A stretch of DNA of 64,000 bases from Candidatus Poribacteria bacterium (GCA_965242965.1 OZ251518.1:832001-896000), one strand, 5' to 3'; shown: positions 16,281 through 63,023, counted from the first letter of the stretch. Notes: a model not told the origin generated them from the sequence alone. Numbers and translations are program-made.

Positions 16281-19200
16281 CTATTTTCGCCGTTTCAACG
16301 CACCGAACGTCGTCAGCATCCGATTTGCCGCAGAAACAGGACCCGGCAACAACCGCGTCACTAACGTCTCCGGCTTACCATCAAACGCAACTTCCTCAAT
16401 CTGGTAGTAATACTCAATCCCCGGCTTCGCAGACGTATCCGTAAACGTATACGTTTGACGCTCACCTGTCGTGCCGGCACCGGCGATGAGCGCAGGATTC
16501 AAGAGCGTGAAACCGCTCGCGCGCTTTTCACTGCGACGCAGGTTGAAGCCCGCGTTGTCGACTTCAGATTCGGTTGTCCATGTCAAGACGACAGCACCTG
16601 CCTCGGTGCGCGTCAGCGAGAAACTCGATAACTCCACCGGCAATGCACCGCCTTCACGATGCCCCGGCGTGCCGATGTCTTCGGCATCACCCCAGTAGAG
16701 CGCATCGCTGCTAGAGACAACTTTCTTGACACGCGCCGCCAAAACCCAACTCGCACGCTTTTGTCCCGGCAGCGCAACACCTTTATCATAACGCCGAATG
16801 ACAGAACTCCGCGAACCTTCCTCAAAACTCAACGGTAATGCCCATGCAGGCGCATCGTCCGAACGCCTGTCGCTGTCCCTATTCCCGACTTCGTCAACAA
16901 GATTCCCGTTCCTATCGGAGAGTTGCAGGTAGAATCCCTCGGTACTTAGGAACGTATCCCGCGCCCGCTTGATGCGCAGATTCTTCTCATGCAGTGCGAG
17001 CAGGTCATAAACCCTGTCCGCCGGCAGATACGAATCCGACGAGGCACGCGCCGGACCTGCGACGATGAGCAACGTTTGATTCGGCTGAATCACTTTCTCG
17101 CTGAGCGTCAACGTGACAATCGGGCGGCCGACTAAATCCTCGGAATCCACATTCTGAATCTCCAACCTCCAGCGGTTGAGATTAATGGCATCCGTTTTGG
17201 AATTGTTGTAGAGTTCGATCCACTGCGGCAGTGTGCGCCCGCCGGAATCCACCATGATTTCGCTGAAGGTGACGCTGCCTTTCGGCGTGGCGGCTTCCGT
17301 TTTCACTGCACCATTCGGATAGCCCGGTGTGCCGGCAGTGGCAGCCGACTCCGAGACCTTCCTATCATAACCGATACCGGTGAATGCCGATTCTGCCCAG
17401 GCATCCCTGTGGTATCCCACAATGTCCGCCTTGGCGCGCTGCCAGACTTTGCCTGAGCCGAGTGCATCTTCGGTGTCACCACCGGGTGCCTGCAGCACTT
17501 GCAAGGGCCAGACATGCGTATCATAATCGCCTGTCTGTTCACGGACAAACGCATCCGTGTCACTGCCGCCACCACCAGCGACATCCACGAACGCCTCGTT
17601 CAAGCCGCGTTTATCCTTCGCGTTCCGGAGAATTAACAGGAATTTTCCATCATCTGGCAGGGACAACTCCGATTTGACAAAATATAGGTGCGAAGAACCT
17701 TTTGTCTCGACCTCGGCAGTCGCCACGTTATCACCGCCTGCAAGCGCGTTGCCTTCCGCTGTCGGATCGCTGTTGGTAATCAACAACAGCCCATTCGCCG
17801 GCACACTCACATCTTCTACGAAAGCAATCAGGGAAGTATCTTCCTTCTTGCCATCCTGCACGACGCTGAGCTCCCAGTCTTTCAAGGAAACAGCCGCGCC
17901 GGTGACATTGCGAAGTTCCAGCCAATCATCAGCATCGCCGCTACCGTTGCCGAGTTCGTTGAAGACAACGGGACTGCGCGGCACATCAGAGGTCGGCGAC
18001 TTCGGATCTGACGTTTCCGGAAGGTAAATCACCGGCACCACCGGTGTCTCCGAAACTACCGGGGCAATCTCACGGCCAGACGTATCTTCCAAAGGCAATG
18101 GATCTGCCACCGGCACCGTTGTTGGCGCAGCACCAGACTCCGCCGCAGCCTCCTCTGTCCCAACCTGCCGCTCAGACGGTGCAGTCAGTGGCCCAGAAAG
18201 CAACATCGTCTTGTCCGGCACGAGTATCTTGACAGAGGGGACACGCACTGCCTCCGCCACCGTGTCCGTTGGTGCCACCGTATACGCGAACGTCACTTTC
18301 GTCGAATTCGTGTCTTCTGAGGCACTCCAGACAGCATGCCGAGCATTTGCCTGCACCTCTTCACCCAGATACACCGTCACATACGGCGGGTTCTCCCCTT
18401 CATAGCGGAGATTCTCCCTGTCATATGTCACTTCAACTTCAATCTTATCCCCAGCGGTATAGGCACCGGCGGGAGGCGCGACAATCTCCGGCTTTTCCAC
18501 CACGCGCAACGGATTATCCACTGACACCGTCAACGTATTCGATGCGAGATTTTTGTTGCGAGCGATGTCCATCGTGACCTCCGCAGGCACCTGGATAGCC
18601 ACATCTCCCTTAAAAGCAAGCGGCGGCGCGAGGGTGACACGGTAGACTTTGCTTTGCGGATGGCCCACTCCGAAACGCGGCACCCTCGTTATCGGCACAT
18701 AACTATACCCGATAAACTCTGGGGTTGATACCGTCCACCCCTCCAAGACATTCCCGGAGGCATCGGTGAAACGGAGAGCATCGGCATCAATGTCCGCCAC
18801 TTCATCGGCGATATCCACCGTCCGGTCCGGTGCACCATCCGAGTCTGGAGCAGACATGACATTGTAAAACTTGATGTCCACCGTGAAAGGCCCCGTCACG
18901 TCTGTCCCCTCATCAACTTTCGTCAGTGCCACCGACGGCCGGATGCCATCCACTTGGTGCTCAAGTCCCCCTTGCCAATTCTTCTTCGTATGCGAGGCAT
19001 AGTTACGAAAACTGTCTGCTCCCGGCTTACCCCTTGAATTCGTGTTAAGCTGCGTAAAGGGGTTACCGCTCAAGTCTTGGATTGCATAGGTAGTTTCGTG
19101 ATGCTGAATGTGATTTTCACCCGGAGCCGCCGGATGCTGAGTATGACCCGGCCCCCCGAACGGATCGTTCGGGTCTTCGCTGCGTGTGGCAAAGGGCCAA

Positions 19201-20435
19201 AAGGTGCTAATGCCGCTACTGAAAGCACCGTCACCCTCCTGCACGGTGTAACCGAAGTATAACTTGTTGTCAGCATCACTCCTCGTGCCACGGCTGAGAC
19301 TTGCAAGTCGCGCCTGCCCGCTGAAAGTCAGGATCATGACAACATCAGGATGGGCTTCAACAGGTCTCGTAAACTCCACCGAAACCTCAAGCGTATCCCC
19401 TATCCCGTAGAAACGGGTGGATTTCGGGGACAGGTCGTCAACCGTAGGTCCCCGAGCGAGCCCATCGGCATCAAGACATGCCGCCACCGGCATCGGATCA
19501 CCGTGCATGTATTGCTGCAACCAAGCAGTTGTAGGGCTCCCTCTATAAGTCGTCAGGTCTACCCCAGTGCAGACTTCGTGAACCGCGGCGGCGAGACTGG
19601 GGCCTTTATGCGGTGCTTCGCTAACCAACTCATACGGGCTTGTCAGCATGACAGAGTCTGAATTAGCGGCTGGATCCACATCTGGACCCGGCGGCGAAGA
19701 ACCTTCCGGCCCGAATGTTGCATCAACGATCGTCGGGCTAACGGCATATATCCTGGGATAGTAGATAGTGCCGGTATAAGTTGCGCTTGTCGCTCCAACC
19801 CACCGTTGGAAAGGCTTGTCACCACCACGCAGATGCAACCAACTGCCATCCTCGTCCGTGTCGCCTGACTTCACGCGGTAGGCGTATACCACAGTAAAGG
19901 AGTAGGGTGTTCCTGGGGGTATATTCACCTTCACATTCCGACTTGCTTCTATGAAGCGGCTCGGGGACAAGATCTTTGTATATGTGGTACTTGTCCATGA
20001 CTCATACACTGTCCTGTGCGGGCCGCCAGTATCCCAACCACTGAGAGATATAACTGAACCGTGCCTGACATCAGGACCGTTCCTGGTTACCTTAAAGGCA
20101 ATCGCGATAATGTCACCAGCCTTCGCAGTATAGGGATCTGCGCCACCGTGCGCCTTAGCTTCGGTGATTTCAACACCACCGTCATCAATGCTCAGCGTCC
20201 CTTCAGAGAACTCGTCAACCTCCGGCAGCATGTCGCTACCGTTAATGACAATGGGAGTCTTCCGCGCGCCGTCAAACTCCTCTGGCATGCCATCCTCACT
20301 AGGGGGCACCATGTCAGGGTTCACATAAATTCTAACATTATTAATGGTGTAACTTGCCTGCGCGTCGGTTCCCGTTCCGAGGGAAACCACCAGGGTGACG
20401 ATGAGCAAGCAACCTAAGCAACAAAACGTTTTCAT
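16281..20435 (-). CDS. Large secreted/surface protein with Ig-like and two lamin-tail (LTD)-like domains
   Basis: Signal peptide, VVFNELG...DWLELRN and VTFSEIM...QWIELYN with GTPG motifs, LPVELSSF domain, C-terminal LTTFGALKRRK. Confidence 0.8.
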   Translation of the reverse strand: MKTFCCLGCLLIVTLVVSLGTGTDAQASYTINNVRIYVNPDMVPPSEDGMPEEFDGARKTPIVINGSDMLPEVDEFSEGTLSIDDGGVEITEAKAHGGADPYTAKAGDIIAIAFKVTRNGPDVRHGSVISLSGWDTGGPHRTVYESWTSTTYTKILSPSRFIEASRNVKVNIPPGTPYSFTVVYAYRVKSGDTDEDGSWLHLRGGDKPFQRWVGATSATYTGTIYYPRIYAVSPTIVDATFGPEGSSPPGPDVDPAANSDSVMLTSPYELVSEAPHKGPSLAAAVHEVCTGVDLTTYRGSPTTAWLQQYMHGDPMPVAACLDADGLARGPTVDDLSPKSTRFYGIGDTLEVSVEFTRPVEAHPDVVMILTFSGQARLASLSRGTRSDADNKLYFGYTVQEGDGAFSSGISTFWPFATRSEDPNDPFGGPGHTQHPAAPGENHIQHHETTYAIQDLSGNPFTQLNTNSRGKPGADSFRNYASHTKKNWQGGLEHQVDGIRPSVALTKVDEGTDVTGPFTVDIKFYNVMSAPDSDGAPDRTVDIADEVADIDADALRFTDASGNVLEGWTVSTPEFIGYSYVPITRVPRFGVGHPQSKVYRVTLAPPLAFKGDVAIQVPAEVTMDIARNKNLASNTLTVSVDNPLRVVEKPEIVAPPAGAYTAGDKIEVEVTYDRENLRYEGENPPYVTVYLGEEVQANARHAVWSASEDTNSTKVTFAYTVAPTDTVAEAVRVPSVKILVPDKTMLLSGPLTAPSERQVGTEEAAAESGAAPTTVPVADPLPLEDTSGREIAPVVSETPVVPVIYLPETSDPKSPTSDVPRSPVVFNELGNGSGDADDWLELRNVTGAAVSLKDWELSVVQDGKKEDTSLIAFVEDVSVPANGLLLITNSDPTAEGNALAGGDNVATAEVETKGSSHLYFVKSELSLPDDGKFLLILRNAKDKRGLNEAFVDVAGGGGSDTDAFVREQTGDYDTHVWPLQVLQAPGGDTEDALGSGKVWQRAKADIVGYHRDAWAESAFTGIGYDRKVSESAATAGTPGYPNGAVKTEAATPKGSVTFSEIMVDSGGRTLPQWIELYNNSKTDAINLNRWRLEIQNVDSEDLVGRPIVTLTLSEKVIQPNQTLLIVAGPARASSDSYLPADRVYDLLALHEKNLRIKRARDTFLSTEGFYLQLSDRNGNLVDEVGNRDSDRRSDDAPAWALPLSFEEGSRSSVIRRYDKGVALPGQKRASWVLAARVKKVVSSSDALYWGDAEDIGTPGHREGGALPVELSSFSLTRTEAGAVVLTWTTESEVDNAGFNLRRSEKRASGFTLLNPALIAGAGTTGERQTYTFTDTSAKPGIEYYYQIEEVAFDGKPETLVTRLLPGPVSAANRMLTTFGALKRRK

Positions 20436-20497
20436 CAAATTTTCTCCTTAAAGGTTTGATTCCTCTCCTGTTAGGAGAGAGCAGCGTGTTCTAGGAG

Positions 20498-26722: not shown

Positions 26723-27132
26723 TGAGGGTGTTTCATATTTCGAGGCGTTCGGTAGGAGAGACCTCCCGGTCTCGATTTTCCCGCATCGCGGTGGCCTGTC
26801 CTCCGCGATGGCTCAAGAACCGTTTTTTATCGTAGCGCGGGGGCCTGTCCCCCGCGATCTCCATCGTCACGATGTGTGTTTTCCCTCTGTAGTTCGGGAG
26901 CGCCCGCTCCCGAACGGGTCAGGATCAGGCGATCCTGATCTACAGAGCCTGGGGCGCGCGAACGATGGCGAGGGACAGGCCCTCGCCCTACGATGAAGGG
27001 AGACCTTCTGCTGCCGCTGCCGCGGGAGGCGCGCCGCCTATTGCATCGAGACCGGGAGGTCTCTCCTACCGGCAGAAATCGAGACCGGGAGGTCTCTCCT
27101 ACGGGTGTGCATCGAGTTATGAAATACCCTCA
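26723..27132. mobile_element. MITE-like element filled with REP modules
   Basis: TIRs TGAGGGTGTTTCATA / TATGAAATACCCTCA, flanking direct repeat AAATAAC on both sides, no coding capacity evident. Confidence 0.7.
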
Positions 27133-27177
27133 AAATAACACCAAAGCGAACAGATTGCGGGTATGTGCACACAATAT

Positions 27178-46812: not shown

Positions 46813-47672
46813 TGAGGGTATTTCATAAATCGTTTTCCCCGGTAGGAGAGACCTCCTGGTCTCGATGCAATAGGGGGCGCGCCGGCAGAAAGCCCCCCCT
46901 TCATTGTAGGGCGAGGGCCTGTCCCTCGCCATCGCTCGCGCACTCCAACACTCGCGGGGGATAGGCAACCGCACTACGAAAAAAACGTCTCTTAGGTCCG
47001 TAGGACCTTAATGTCTATAGCACGTGAAGCTGCGAAGAACGCTAAGGTCCTTTAGGTCCTTAATAGTTTTTGAGATGCCGCGTGCTTTTTTATTAAGGAC
47101 CGAAAGGACCTTGACGTGAACCGGCACGTTTATCTATAGACATGTAGGACCTAAAGGACCTAAAACGCCCCCGCTTGGCGATGGAGATCGCGGGGGACAG
47201 GCCCCCGCGCTACGGTAAAAATAACGCCTGCCTTTCACCGTAGGGCGAGGGCCCTCGCATGCCATACGCGCATGCGAGCGGGTTCCCCTCGCCATCGCTC
47301 GCGCAATCCAACGATCGCGGGGGACAGGCCCCCGCGCTACGATAAAACGCCGCCCCATCACGTAGGGCGAGGGCCTGTCCCTCGCCAGCGTTCGCGCGCT
47401 AGGCTCTGTAGTTCAGGATCACCCGATCCTGACCTGTTTGTGATCAGGCGATCACAAACTACAGACAGGGAAGCACATGACGCTGGCGATCGCGGGGGAC
47501 AGGCCCCCGCGCTACGATAAAAATAACGCCTTCCTTTCATCGTAGGGAGGGCCCTCGGATGCCACACGCGCATGCGAGAGGGTTTCCCTCGCCAATGCTC
47601 GCGCACTCCAACGATCGCGGGGGACAGGCCCCCGCGCTACGGGAAAAATCGAGACCGGGAGGTCTCTCCTAC
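46813..47672. repeat. Large mosaic REP cluster (MITE end, C, A, D, nested A, B)
   Basis: Starts tgagggtatttcataa; family D element at 46992-47163. Confidence 0.9.
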
Positions 47673-50008: not shown

Positions 50009-50490
50009 TGAGGGTGTTTCCTAACTCGTGAGACCTTGAACGATTCCGTTTCCCCAGTAGGAGAGACCTCCTGGTCTCGATTTCTTTCTTCTTTCTGTCG
50101 TCGTGCCTACCGGGGCCGCGGTGCCTGTAGGTCAAGATCGCCTGATCTTGACCTGTTTGTGATCAGGCGATCACAAACTACAGAGGAAGAAACACACATC
50201 GTGACGTTGGAGATCGCGGGGGACAGGCCCCCGCGCTACGGTTGTCGAGGCCGTCTTCCTTTCATCGTAGGGCTTGGGCCCTCGCATGCCACGCGCGCAT
50301 GCGAGAGGGTTTCCCTCGCCATCGTTCGCGCGCCAGGCTCTGTAGTTCAGGAGCACCTGCTCCTGAACTGTTTGTGATCAGGCGATCACAAACTACAGAG
50401 GAGGGCACAATGTCTTCCGGGAACATCGAGACCAGGAGGTCTCTCCTACCGGGAATGCATCGAGACCCCGAGGGCTCTCCTACCGGCCCC
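50009..50490. repeat. Mosaic REP cluster starting with a MITE-type end
   Basis: tgagggtgtttcctaactcg followed by C, B, A, nested A, B, C, C modules. Confidence 0.88.
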
Positions 50491-60607: not shown

Positions 60608-61828
60608 TTATTTCGTATTTCGCATGGAAACGACCCGCGTTAAAATCTTATCAGCGACGGCGCGTTTGGAGAGACGCGGGAGCTGTTCGCACGTGCCATC
60701 CCAATCTAATAAGGTGACAATGTTCGTATCTACCTCAAACCCTGCACCCTCGGCGAGAATATCGTTCGCGACGATGAGATCGCAGTTTTTTCGGACTAAT
60801 TTTTCTTTCGCGTTGGCAAGCAGTTCTTCCGTTTCGGCGGCGAAGCAGACAAGAAATTGGTGCGTTTTCCGTTCGCCGAGGTCCTGCGCGATATCCGGAT
60901 TCCTTTCAAACGTGAGCGCCAATGTCAACGGCGAGTCTGTCTTCTTTATTTTCTGCGGTGCGCGTTGCGTTGGCCGATAATCGGCGGGTGCCGCCGCCAT
61001 CACGACGATGTCTGTCTCGTCGAAAGCGCGCAAGACTTCCTCGTGCATCTCCACCGTAGTCCCGACGCGCCGAGTCTCAATGCCGCCGGGGGCCGGCACG
61101 GTGGTATGCCCACAGATGAGTAGCACCTCGGCACCGCGGGCTTTCGCCGCCGCCGCGATGGCGTATCCCATCTTGCCGCTGGAAGGATTCGTGATAAAGC
61201 GGCCCGGGTCGATGTATTCGCGCGTCGCCCCGGCAGTAACCAGCACCCGTATCCCTTGCAAATCGGCGTTTTCCTGAAAGCGCGCGCCGAGGATTTCAGT
61301 GGCGCGTTGGAGGATAACGTCTACCGTATTCAGTCTGCCAACGCCTTCATAACCGCAGGCTAAATCGCCGCTGGCGGGTTCAACGAAGTGGACCCCGTGC
61401 GTTTTCAGCGTCTCCATATTCCGTTGCACCATCGGATTGTGGTACATGTGTCCGTTCATCGCGGGTGCGAGGAGTATCGGGCAATGCACGGAAATAGCGA
61501 CGGTAGAGAGCGCGTCATCGGCGATGCCGTTCGCCATTTTCCCGATGATGTTGGCAGTCGCCGGCACGATAATGAGCAACGCGCCGTTGTCAGCGAGTTC
61601 GATGTGGGGAGGCTTCCAATCTGTCCCTGCGGCAAACAGGTCTGACAACACTGGGTTTCGTGAGATAACTTGGAATTGCAGCGGCTGCACGAGGCGCGTG
61701 GCGTTGGGTGTCATCACGGTATGCACATCGGCACCGCGCTTGACGAGTTGACTCGCCAGGTCTAGCGATTTGTGGATGGCGATGCCGCCGGTAACGCCTA
61801 AGATGATTGTGTGGTTGCTGAGTTCCAT
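60608..61828 (-). CDS. coaBC: Bifunctional phosphopantothenoylcysteine decarboxylase / ligase
   Basis: GVTGGIA, PATANIIGK, APAMN, LACGYEGVGR, VTAGATRE, SSGKMG, FAAET. Confidence 0.97.
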   Translation of the reverse strand: MELSNHTIILGVTGGIAIHKSLDLASQLVKRGADVHTVMTPNATRLVQPLQFQVISRNPVLSDLFAAGTDWKPPHIELADNGALLIIVPATANIIGKMANGIADDALSTVAISVHCPILLAPAMNGHMYHNPMVQRNMETLKTHGVHFVEPASGDLACGYEGVGRLNTVDVILQRATEILGARFQENADLQGIRVLVTAGATREYIDPGRFITNPSSGKMGYAIAAAAKARGAEVLLICGHTTVPAPGGIETRRVGTTVEMHEEVLRAFDETDIVVMAAAPADYRPTQRAPQKIKKTDSPLTLALTFERNPDIAQDLGERKTHQFLVCFAAETEELLANAKEKLVRKNCDLIVANDILAEGAGFEVDTNIVTLLDWDGTCEQLPRLSKRAVADKILTRVVSMRNTK

Positions 61829-61852
61829 GTTGTGCTGCCTTTATAGTTAAAT

Positions 61853-62281
61853 GAGGGTGTTTCATAATTCCGTTTCGGATTTATCCCGCCTTGGAGGGTG
61901 GGATAACACCAGAAGGCATCGGGCCCACCTCTGTAGTTCGGGATCGCCCGATCCCGAACGGGTCAGGAGCAGGCGATCCTGACCTACAGGGGTGATGCGC
62001 TCTGCCAGCCAAACGCATGGCGAGGGACAGGCCCTCGCCCTACGGTAACCCGGGGCGTTTTTTTCTGTCGATCCGTTCGGGATCAGGCGATCCCGAACTA
62101 CGGTCTTTTCCAAGGTCTGGGCACGGCGAGGGAAACCCGCTCGGATGCGCGTGTGGCATGCGAGGGCCCAAGCCCTACGCGAAGGGGTGGCGTTTTTTTA
62201 TCGCAGCGCGGGGCCCTCGGATGCCACACGCGCATCCGAGAGGGTTTCACCGCGACGTTGAGCGAGTTATGAAACACCCTC
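61853..62281. mobile_element. MITE-like element filled with REP modules
   Basis: Perfect 15-bp TIRs GAGGGTGTTTCATAA / TTATGAAACACCCTC; exact 8-bp flanking repeat AGTTAAAT at 61845-61852 and 62282-62289. Confidence 0.8.
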
Positions 62282-62378
62282 AGTTAAATGCATCGAGACC
62301 AGGAGGTCTCTCCTACTCCCCATCTGTAGTTTGTGATCGCCTGATCACAAACGATGCATCGAGACCAGGAGGGCTCTC

Positions 62379-63023
62379 CTACCGAGTGAATCGTTGATTA
62401 ATTGTTTTCACCAAACCTGCGTCGATTCGGCAACGTTCCGCCGCAATAATCGCCTGAATCTGAGCCACAGCCTGTTTTATCCCACCGTCATGGTTAGTAA
62501 CGCAATAGTCGTAGTGCTGAATTTGGGCGATTTCGGATGCCGCGATGTCCAAGCGTTGCATCAGTTCCGATTCCGATTCCGTTTTCCTGCCGCGGAGTCG
62601 TTTCTCCAAATCGGCAAACGATGCAGGGACGATGAAGATGAGTAGACTCCTAACAGTTCCATGTCCTATCCGTTGGCGCGCTTGTAGCGCGCCTTGGACT
62701 TCGATCTCCAAAACCGAGGCTTTCCCTGCGTTTTGTCCGAGCGCGATTTCAGACATGAGTGTGCCGTAGAAATTGCCGCCGTATTCTGCCCATTCGAGGA
62801 ACCCTTCCTGCTGAATCAGTTCCTCAAATTCGGATTTTGACAGAAAGTGATAGTCCACGCCGTCCACTTCGCGTGGGCGCGGCGTGCGCGTCGTTGCGGA
62901 AACGGCGAGTCTCAACGTCTCATCTGCTTTGCAGAGTGCATTGACGACGGTGCTTTTACCGGAGCCCGAAGGACCCGAAATAACGACGACTAAATTGGGT
63001 TGATAGAAATCCTTATGTGCCAC
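62379..63023 (-). CDS. gmk: Guanylate kinase
   Basis: SGPSGSGKST, SATTRTPR..EVDGVDYHF, FLEWAEY.GNFYGT, EIEVQGA. Confidence 0.97.
   Translation of the reverse strand: MAHKDFYQPNLVVVISGPSGSGKSTVVNALCKADETLRLAVSATTRTPRPREVDGVDYHFLSKSEFEELIQQEGFLEWAEYGGNFYGTLMSEIALGQNAGKASVLEIEVQGALQARQRIGHGTVRSLLIFIVPASFADLEKRLRGRKTESESELMQRLDIAASEIAQIQHYDYCVTNHDGGIKQAVAQIQAIIAAERCRIDAGLVKTINQRFTR

Follow-up and report, generated by a model that had tools for sequence, protein, structure and literature searches.

A probable DDE-type miniature transposable element filled with a captured REP cluster in the gmk-coaBC spacer of a Poribacteria genome

The spacer between gmk and coaBC in a Candidatus Poribacteria bacterium (GCA_965242965.1; OZ251518.1:832001-896000, a stretch of 64,000 nucleotides that we call the window) holds a 429-bp non-coding block in which two kinds of bacterial repeat meet. 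A first-pass annotation had described perfect 15-bp terminal inverted repeats (TIRs) and an exact 8-bp flanking duplication around an interior of repetitive extragenic palindromes (REPs), and the sequence confirms both the repeats and the duplication. [quoted passage not shown] The locus therefore raises the question of which system placed the block in the spacer and how the REPs came to be inside it. Our answer, in which we have considerable confidence, is that the block is a non-autonomous DDE-type MITE, with a parent insertion sequence (IS) of ~1.1 kb that was found only in Poribacteria and with a captured REP cluster as its interior. The REPs of the interior belong to a second, unrelated mobile-DNA system, that of the REP-associated tyrosine transposases (RAYTs) of the HUH class. 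The parts of the element are as follows, in window coordinates.

61853..62281, no strand assigned: probable non-autonomous MITE, 429 bp, with the canonical REP core reversed and ~160 bp of extra REP modules
61845..61852, no strand assigned: left 8-bp target-site duplication, AGTTAAAT, which fits the genome-wide consensus A-N-T-T-A-A-N-T
61853..61867, plus strand: left 15-bp TIR, GAGGGTGTTTCATAA, identical to the TIR of the 1.1-kb IS of relatives
62267..62281, minus strand: right 15-bp TIR, the exact reverse complement of GAGGGTGTTTCATAA
62282..62289, no strand assigned: right copy of the duplication, AGTTAAAT

The TIR is set at 15 bp because complementarity ends at nucleotide 16. Open reading frames (ORFs) that overlap the element traverse its hairpin repeats, and no transposase gene lies inside. 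Folded as single-stranded DNA, the element reaches -155.7 kcal/mol (z = -16.7).

The ends belong to a large family. In the assembly, which consists of a 5.66-Mb contig that carries the window and a 38-kb contig (G+C content 54%), the TIR 14-mer occurs 1026 times at up to two mismatches (530 without mismatch, 370 with one, and 126 with two). By our own arithmetic for uniform base composition, ~37 matches are expected by chance, nearly all of them in the two-mismatch class. Adjacent plus and minus matches no more than 5 kb apart form 329 pairs, of which 298 are compact (up to 1 kb); the modal length is 250-300 bp and the median 393 bp. A search for such pairs and their flanks, proposed in the first-pass annotation, thus yields exact 8- or 9-bp flanking repeats at 90 of the 298 compact pairs (64 of 8 bp and 26 of 9 bp), whereas shuffled partners give 0.76 on average and at most 4; at up to one mismatch, the count is 143 of 298. 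The logo of the duplicated sites gives the consensus A-N-T-T-A-A-N-T. Of the 596 paired ends, 335 show no mismatch over 14 nt, and the per-site identity amounts to 96%, values biased by preselection of the matches at up to two mismatches.

The length of the duplication had seemed to depend on where the TIR is taken to end. This ambiguity is settled by four pairs of elements that lie back to back, all of them spaced by exactly 8 bp. The spacing matches insertion of a second element into the duplicated target of the first, so the element ends are GAGGG...CCCTC and the usual duplication is 8 bp. Intact IS copies in relatives agree, with exact duplications of 8 bp (ten copies) or 9 bp (two copies) measured from the same ends; 17 have duplications with up to one mismatch.

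It is in relatives of the same family that the TIRs enclose a transposase gene. Complete elements with perfect TIRs and one ORF are 1111 bp (L030), 1122 bp (L031), and 972 bp (L032) long, and their ORF encodes a 332-aa DDE transposase that matches Pfam DDE_Tnp_1_3 (PF13612) with 37.4 bits (cut-off 27). When one genome from each prokaryote species was scanned, 48 loci encoding relatives were found, all in Poribacteria records, and 25 of the 48 are complete IS copies of 1106-1124 bp with the same 15-17-bp TIR. GAGGG is present at both ends of all 25, with a single TIR mismatch elsewhere in two right ends. Their insertion targets resemble those of the MITEs (A...T, AT-rich). An IS with the same TIR, duplication length, and target thus encodes a DDE transposase in relatives, which bears out the earlier proposal of DDE-type miniature elements. 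MITE and IS share their ends only; the interiors differ.

By its sequence, the transposase is a predicted member of the IS4/IS5/IS982 clan of DDE enzymes. Nine aligned proteins, 81-87% identical to the first sequence, all match PF13612 and have invariant D121, D213, and E269, a putative catalytic triad judging from the motifs, followed by an invariant K at 277 (+8 from E269). The best NCBIfam match is IS982 (NF033520), at 52 bits against a cut-off of 130. The consulted part of a published account of IS982 (PMC7335449) describes several shared traits, namely a length of ~1 kb, one transposase gene, a PF13612 DDE domain, direct repeats whose variable range includes those seen here, and no K or R 6-7 residues after the catalytic E (the parent IS has its K at +8). 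According to the same text, inverted repeats have a conserved 5'-AC in 57 of 69 members, whereas those of the parent IS begin with GAGGG (PMC7335449). Since size, single ORF, and atypical DDE motif fit IS982 and the inverted-repeat end does not, we call the parent IS982-like and make no family assignment. The earlier guess of an IS5/IS1182-like element was therefore close, in that the clan includes IS5, but the profile is IS982-like. The exact 332-aa protein is present in a public collection, in a cluster whose sole named member is a "hypothetical protein", and a PDB sequence search with the transposase profile gave no match at E up to 1.

The distribution of the ends among relatives is uneven. 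At up to one mismatch, the TIR 15-mer occurs 807 times in the window genome and 8 times and once in two congeners, and of 111 further genomes in the family 87 contain it, most of these at 1-15 copies and a few at 20-60; a reversed-pattern control gave 0-2 per genome. In the fragmented assemblies of relatives the matches often lie at contig ends, as a multi-copy IS would give. Another Poribacteria genus has a 210-bp MITE (L093-L096) with the same TIR, an AT-rich target, and 8-bp duplications (exact in 2 of 4), and presumably the same parent IS. It is low in copy number and has no GTAG hairpins inside. REP cargo is therefore not obligatory for this IS and is specific to the genus of the window.

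An element with the same ends and a transposase, which the first-pass annotation had proposed to look for, is thus found in relatives, but the window genome retains only remnants. There, the only tblastn matches to the transposase at E up to 10 are short N-terminal pieces and a remnant with an internal deletion (C1:2371380-2371666, L038). Seven copies retain the initial 130-138 bp of the IS, and six of the seven, read from printed sequences, switch to REP arrays at ~165-175 nt; the six form three pairs that continue differently from one another. One of the six is the end of an 894-bp TIR-bounded element (C1:2778080-2778973), which is otherwise a REP mosaic and is flanked by a perfect 9-bp duplication; of all the forms seen, it stands most clearly midway from the IS to a REP-filled MITE. 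Genome scans with seven DDE Pfam families (PF01609, PF00872, PF00665, PF12762, PF01610, PF03050, and PF13612) gave no match, other transposase families not being scanned. No transposase-like ORF occurs in the 31 TIR pairs 1-5 kb apart or in 17 longer-range candidates with near-matching flanks; the ORFs within long TIR pairs are host genes (ankyrin/dockerin, Type ISP-like restriction-modification, PhoU, leucine-rich repeat protein, enolase-like, and aminotransferase). Self-comparison of the genome for repeats of at least 700 bp likewise returned paralogous host genes only and no IS. With only decayed IS remnants left, the MITEs look orphaned, and with no intact transposase in the assembly the family is probably immobile now.

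The interior has a different affiliation. A simple hairpin test counts 9148 GTAG hairpins genome-wide, against 3128 following the control tetramer GATG, and the main REP stem families have 1908, 1619, 1100, and 539 copies. The 298 compact elements, 2.1% of the genome, contain 1289 of the GTAG hairpins (14%), and 86% lie outside them. The genome has a single intact Y1 transposase (Y1_Tnp) gene, a RAYT (NCBIfam REP_Tyr_transpos NF047646, 120.5 bits against a cut-off of 80), and the hairpin type of the MITE core flanks it, in agreement with the earlier statement that the GTAG hairpins are tied to a RAYT system.

L013:1417-1890, minus strand: RAYT gene, with D-type REP arrays and doublets on both sides, of the same type as in the MITE core

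The heavy REP load, with at least five stem families, is accompanied by this one RAYT gene only. The genome's other Y1 match is a tnpA broken by two TGA stops, in an IS605-type unit (C1:3123891-3127127, L012) beside a gene for a 408-aa TnpB (OrfB_IS605 plus a Cas12f1-like TNB domain).

A defined arrangement of REPs travels with the TIRs. The consensus core, derived from 79 elements of 250-299 bp, is 268 bp long and runs TIR, A hairpin, A-run, B hairpin, E/D inverted doublet, small hairpin, TIR. It thus comprises an A/B REP dimer and an inverted REP doublet. Its interior occurs in 150 copies genome-wide, of which 74 have a TIR at each end, 52 at a single end, and 24 at neither, so the "carry" half of the earlier suggestion that miniature elements carry or nucleate reshuffled REP assemblies holds: 126 copies of a fixed arrangement have at least one TIR. 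Collinearity with the core extends over at least 240 bp in 58 of the 298 compact elements, over 120-239 bp in 110, and over less in 130, and exact duplications are equally common in these classes (17 of 58, 33 of 110, and 40 of 130). The interior is accordingly a captured segment like those of bacterial interspersed mosaic elements (BIMEs), spread together with the TIRs and probably remodelled later, with no free shuffle.

The window copy illustrates this. Its positions 1-213 correspond, with 92% identity, to positions 268-55 of the consensus, and its positions 395-429 correspond to positions 35-1, with ~160 bp of additional REP modules between the two collinear parts. The description of its interior as a shuffled mosaic therefore exaggerated the disorder of this copy. 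Its modules are as follows.

61933..61987, no strand assigned: inverted REP doublet GTAG...CTAC of D-type and E-type hairpins, REPIN-like, within the core; the same doublet type flanks the RAYT gene
62019..62043, minus strand: B-type REP hairpin with a terminal CTAC (GTAG when read on the minus strand), of the "GGCGAGG" family with 1619 genome copies
62075..62101, minus strand: extra D-type REP, not in the canonical core, located where collinearity with the consensus is lost
62124..62257, no strand assigned: long imperfect inverted repeat formed by two REP stems that each contain a nested hairpin insert

A relative of the block elsewhere in the window, with near-identical TIRs and a different module order, had been noted and is present at 26724-27131. 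Each of its TIRs differs at one position, and the module orders of the two blocks are "DBEd" and "CADebcc". The flanking repeat given for it, AAATAAC, is present as a 7-mer, but the fuller repeat is 9 bp long and matches at 8 of 9 positions.

26724..27131, no strand assigned: second MITE copy, 408 bp, with TIRs GAGGGTGTTTCATAT and GAGGGTATTTCATAA
26715..26723, no strand assigned: left 9-bp flanking repeat, AAAATAACT, matching the right flank at 8 of 9 positions
27132..27140, no strand assigned: right 9-bp flanking repeat, AAAATAACA

Recurrent fused ends are seen around C1 positions 189057, 189252, and 3359651, where a MITE right end with a GACGG variant of the TIR is joined directly to an A-type REP leader. 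Such chimeric junctions suggest that recombination took place at a short motif common to both sequences and that copying ensued.

Comparison with the two congeners (G001 and G002), which are metagenome-assembled genomes 80-90% identical to the window genome and of which one is only 86% complete, shows the element to be absent from both at all five loci examined.

gmk-coaBC: in G001, a ~32-bp spacer with one C-like REP and no AGTTAAAT; in G002, an unrelated ~226-bp spacer
Second window block: in G001, sequence continuous through a single AAAGCAAC-like site; in G002, element absent and no TIR
C1:1555160: in G001 and G002, a single AT-rich site in place of element and duplication
C1:1544031: absent in G001 and G002, with alignments that are not clean; G001 has REP-like sequence of its own
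C1:1540018: in G001, an array of five B-type REPs and no TIR; in G002, C-type and B-type REPs and no TIR

Flanks align up to a single AT-rich site at two of these loci, C1:1555160 and the second window block. An empty site with one AGTTAAAT had been predicted between gmk and coaBC; the element is indeed missing there, but the spacer has diverged and no single copy of the 8-mer is left. The one C-like REP in the G001 spacer indicates that REPs at this position need no MITE. On the side of the window genome, the left junction at coaBC is spanned by contigs from public runs that belong to three studies; the insertion is therefore present in several samples, which suggests that it is fixed. Contigs of four runs at the window locus include no joint of 61852 to 62282, only repeat-driven joints among REP modules, and one X10 contig leaves the window near the left TIR by only 33 letters, too short for interpretation.

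A sequence of events can be proposed from these comparisons. The IS transposase, acting in trans, would have bound the TIRs and inserted copies through staggered 8-bp cuts, and a lineage-specific burst would have brought the family to at least 300 compact copies and ~1000 ends. The MITE itself may have originated when REP arrays took over the interior of IS copies, of which the chimeras of IS left end and REPs would be survivors. After insertion, the larger and independent REP population would have remodelled the copies by insertion, deletion, and recombination, giving them their mosaic look, and the family is now probably immobile.

Several observations weigh against this account. The TIR search leaves 368 matches unpaired, and exact duplications are present in only 30% of the compact pairs. 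Beyond the 15-17-nt TIR, the MITE shares no more than ~4 nt with one IS copy, so that descent by internal deletion is not traceable base by base. The 298 elements have 207 different module strings and only 58 follow the core collinearly for 240 bp or more, a diversity that is not accounted for by plain copying of a single master element. Among those 58, median identity to the consensus is 84.5%, which looks old for a burst later than the divergence from the congeners; rapid turnover of REPs might account for the low value. At none of the five orthologous loci is the identical 8-mer found in single copy, as may be expected at 80-90% identity, and the empty sites are to that extent not exact. 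Finally, the window genome has no intact partner transposase, and mobilization is judged from relatives.

As an alternative, the REPs may have accumulated in place, short or empty TIR pairs having inserted first and then attracted REPs, with the REP content secondary and the MITE as a seed. This is the "nucleate" half of the earlier suggestion. The ~160 bp of extra modules in the window copy are absent from the core, and among the 130 elements with less than 120 bp of collinearity only 12 have a near-full-length partner, so many architectures are unique and probably arose in place. GTAG hairpins are also overrepresented within the elements, although this enrichment is not corrected for intergenic space, the home of both kinds of repeat. 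On the other hand, 126 of the 150 copies of the defined REP core have a TIR, and the core is already present in a congener (L029 and L019), which implies that REPs were aboard before the burst. The large majority of hairpins outside TIR pairs and the REP arrays that congeners have in MITE-free orthologous spacers also speak against nucleation, and we consider it unlikely as an explanation of the family. Continued mobility, through an overlooked transposase or one supplied by co-resident Poribacteria or mobile DNA in the sponge, would fit the well-preserved TIRs (the 335 exact ends of 596, a selection-biased figure), the many intact IS copies in genomes of the same family, and the fact that the genome was scanned with only eight Pfam families. 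However, tblastn at E up to 10 yields fragments only, PF13612 and PF01609 are without match, the assembly is in two contigs, and the coaBC junction is bridged in three studies, all of which make ongoing transposition quite improbable.

Two further explanations dispense with a DDE enzyme. If a RAYT or another tyrosine (HUH) enzyme moved the blocks, the "TIR" would be a recognition arm in a "TIRYT"-like arrangement; TIR families linked to tyrosine transposases are described in the consulted part of PMC3733652, and the GTAG REP interior and the RAYT gene would suit such a system. The TIR is nevertheless identical to that of the DDE IS, and the RAYT gene has REPs on either side and, within the 1.7 kb around it, lacks such a TIR. 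HUH single-strand transposition, moreover, is not known to make 8- or 9-bp target duplications, and such duplications are present here. We therefore regard movement by an HUH enzyme as very improbable. Alternatively, the 15-mer with its AT-rich 8-mer might be a regulatory or structural site of the host and the blocks ordinary REP clusters between two such sites. Solo exact 15-mers do occur in intergenic DNA of other genera, each beside an A-N-T-T-A-A-N-T-like 8-mer, and 24 bp separate the end of the window copy from the start codon of coaBC. Yet at least two solo sites (in G002 and G014) run on into IS sequence when the printed sequences are compared, and solo TIRs were dropped as a candidate regulatory motif. 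The exact duplication of flanking 8-mers at 90 of 298 pairs and the absence of the element from all five orthologous loci are also at odds with a host site, which we find hardly credible.

Returning to the REP-filled DDE MITE, a bolder version of its history can be imagined, which we offer as a speculation that is possible but doubtful. RAYT-associated REPs would have invaded and destroyed the DDE genes of the IS, turning it into TIR-bounded REP carriers that the transposases of the remaining copies amplified to hundreds of AT-rich intergenic sites. REPs would thus both have extinguished the IS and ridden as its cargo, and the same ends could move host genes.

Host genes do occur between such ends. 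At C1:54311-57212 (L001:501-3402), perfect TIRs and a perfect 8-bp duplication, ATTTAAGT, enclose 2902 bp with REP mosaics and a gene for a 588-aa protein with ankyrin repeats and a dockerin, preceded by a sequence resembling a near-consensus sigma-70 promoter (TTGACA, 17 nt, TACAAT). No internal TIRs were found in this interval, and the transposon ends may have moved the eukaryote-like gene. At C1:188873-192792 (L011), outer TIRs with the same 8-mer, AATAAATT, span 3920 bp with a short MITE and REPs inside. The gene there encodes a 1023-aa Type ISP-like restriction-modification protein, which has several near-identical paralogues of ~3.3 kb, several of them less than 400 bp from a TIR. A 1385-aa ORF of the window (16281-20438, minus strand) was tried as a mobile element and rejected as a paralogous host gene of a nine-copy family; paralogues at L008 and L009 have lamin-tail domains.

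IS982-type MITE bursts have precedents. MITECca01 (~240 bp), with parent ISCca4 of the IS982 family, has 169 copies making up 3.5% of the chromosome in the Cardinium endosymbiont of a spider, as reported in the portion of PMC9769881 available to us. The same portion supports the likeness to the window family, a lineage-specific burst in a host-associated bacterium with IS982-type TIRs in which the MITE outnumbers the IS copies, but the interior of MITECca01 comes from its parental IS, of which intact copies remain (PMC9769881). The window family, in contrast, has a captured REP interior, more copies (298 compact pairs, ~1000 ends), and no intact parent in the genome. Composite MITEs, in which a miniature element bounded by TIRs and target-site duplications is filled with another repeat class, are exemplified in the consulted sections by a Porphyromonas gingivalis MITE with a minisatellite (PMC4596501) and a clam MITE with a tandem-repeat core (PMC3879986). 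In these sections the interiors are tandem repeats without a transposase of their own (PMC4596501, PMC3879986), whereas the cargo of the window family is an independent mobile family with its own enzyme. On the REP side, the BIME/REPIN-RAYT systems of Pseudomonas and E. coli, as far as the excerpt of PMC3733652 covers them, share with the window genome GTAG hairpins, inverted doublets, mosaic clusters, and a single-copy RAYT flanked by its own REPs. Where the window family departs from BIMEs and REPINs is that a BIME-like segment lies between IS ends and is copied as a unit. To our knowledge, BIMEs and REPINs have neither DDE-type TIRs nor 8-bp duplications.

MITE bursts derived from IS982 in symbionts, REP/RAYT/BIME systems, and MITEs filled with tandem repeats are thus already known; what is new here, within the literature searched, is a REP/BIME cluster as the interior of a DDE-type MITE. 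The main texts searched, consulted in part and including PMC3184786, PMC9769881, PMC3733652, and PMC7335449 (supplements being outside the scope), contain no DDE-type MITE with a REP/BIME interior in the parts covered, and nothing on MITEs in Poribacteria was found in this literature. The parent IS is not described in the literature searched either, although an ISfinder entry with these ends may exist; it is currently unannotated and found in Poribacteria records only. Packaged inside a MITE in hundreds of copies, the REPs offer a natural test case for how REP clusters disperse and how an IS family dies. Together, ~1000 transposon ends and thousands of REPs shape the intergenic regions of this genome, as in the gmk-coaBC spacer (~550 bp, compared to ~32 bp in a congener). 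Such repeats will disturb assembly, annotation (through spurious ORFs across hairpins), and operon prediction in uncultivated sponge symbionts. A coupling of the two systems, or gene carriage by the TIR ends, would be of greater significance if shown to be functional.

The remaining features of the locus and of the window TIRs are the following. At up to two mismatches, the window has six matches to the TIR 14-mer, with 0.54 expected.

60608..61828, minus strand: coaBC (Pfam DFP and Flavoprotein), start codon 24 bp from the left end of the element
62379..63023, minus strand: gmk (Pfam Guanylate_kin), upstream of coaBC on the same strand
62290..62385, no strand assigned: three free-standing REPs beyond the element, C-type, D-type variant, and C-type
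46814..46828, plus strand: solo left TIR followed by a REP mosaic, right TIR not detected
50010..50024, plus strand: solo left TIR with one mismatch, followed by a REP mosaic

Rfam matches on the window element are limited to RF00886 and RF03758 at 62124-62257, both below their gathering scores; a microRNA-precursor identity of this repeat (43 bits against a gathering score of 113) was read as spurious and rejected. A further repeat type, built on AGGTCCTTTAGGACCT-like palindromes and "TCTATAG" motifs, occurs among the REPs at window positions 46960-47180, and also in L001 and in the region of C1:539167.

A sister variant of the TIR, GAGGGTGGTTCATAA, is present in 10-14 copies in G057 and G065 (family f3) and also in some f1 genomes (G096, G128, and G131); in G065 it is often ~125 bp away from the end of a contig. 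The variant suggests a related IS lineage. At the sister-variant loci that were fetched, TIR pairs were short or a transposase was missing, and none of these loci yielded the element itself. In one Poribacteria genome, three loci with copies of the parent IS (L051, L052, and L053) are linked through their flanks, the right flank of one copy being the left flank of the next (AGACAATT, then ACTTAATT). Such an exchange of flanks is the signature of recombination-driven rearrangement between IS copies.

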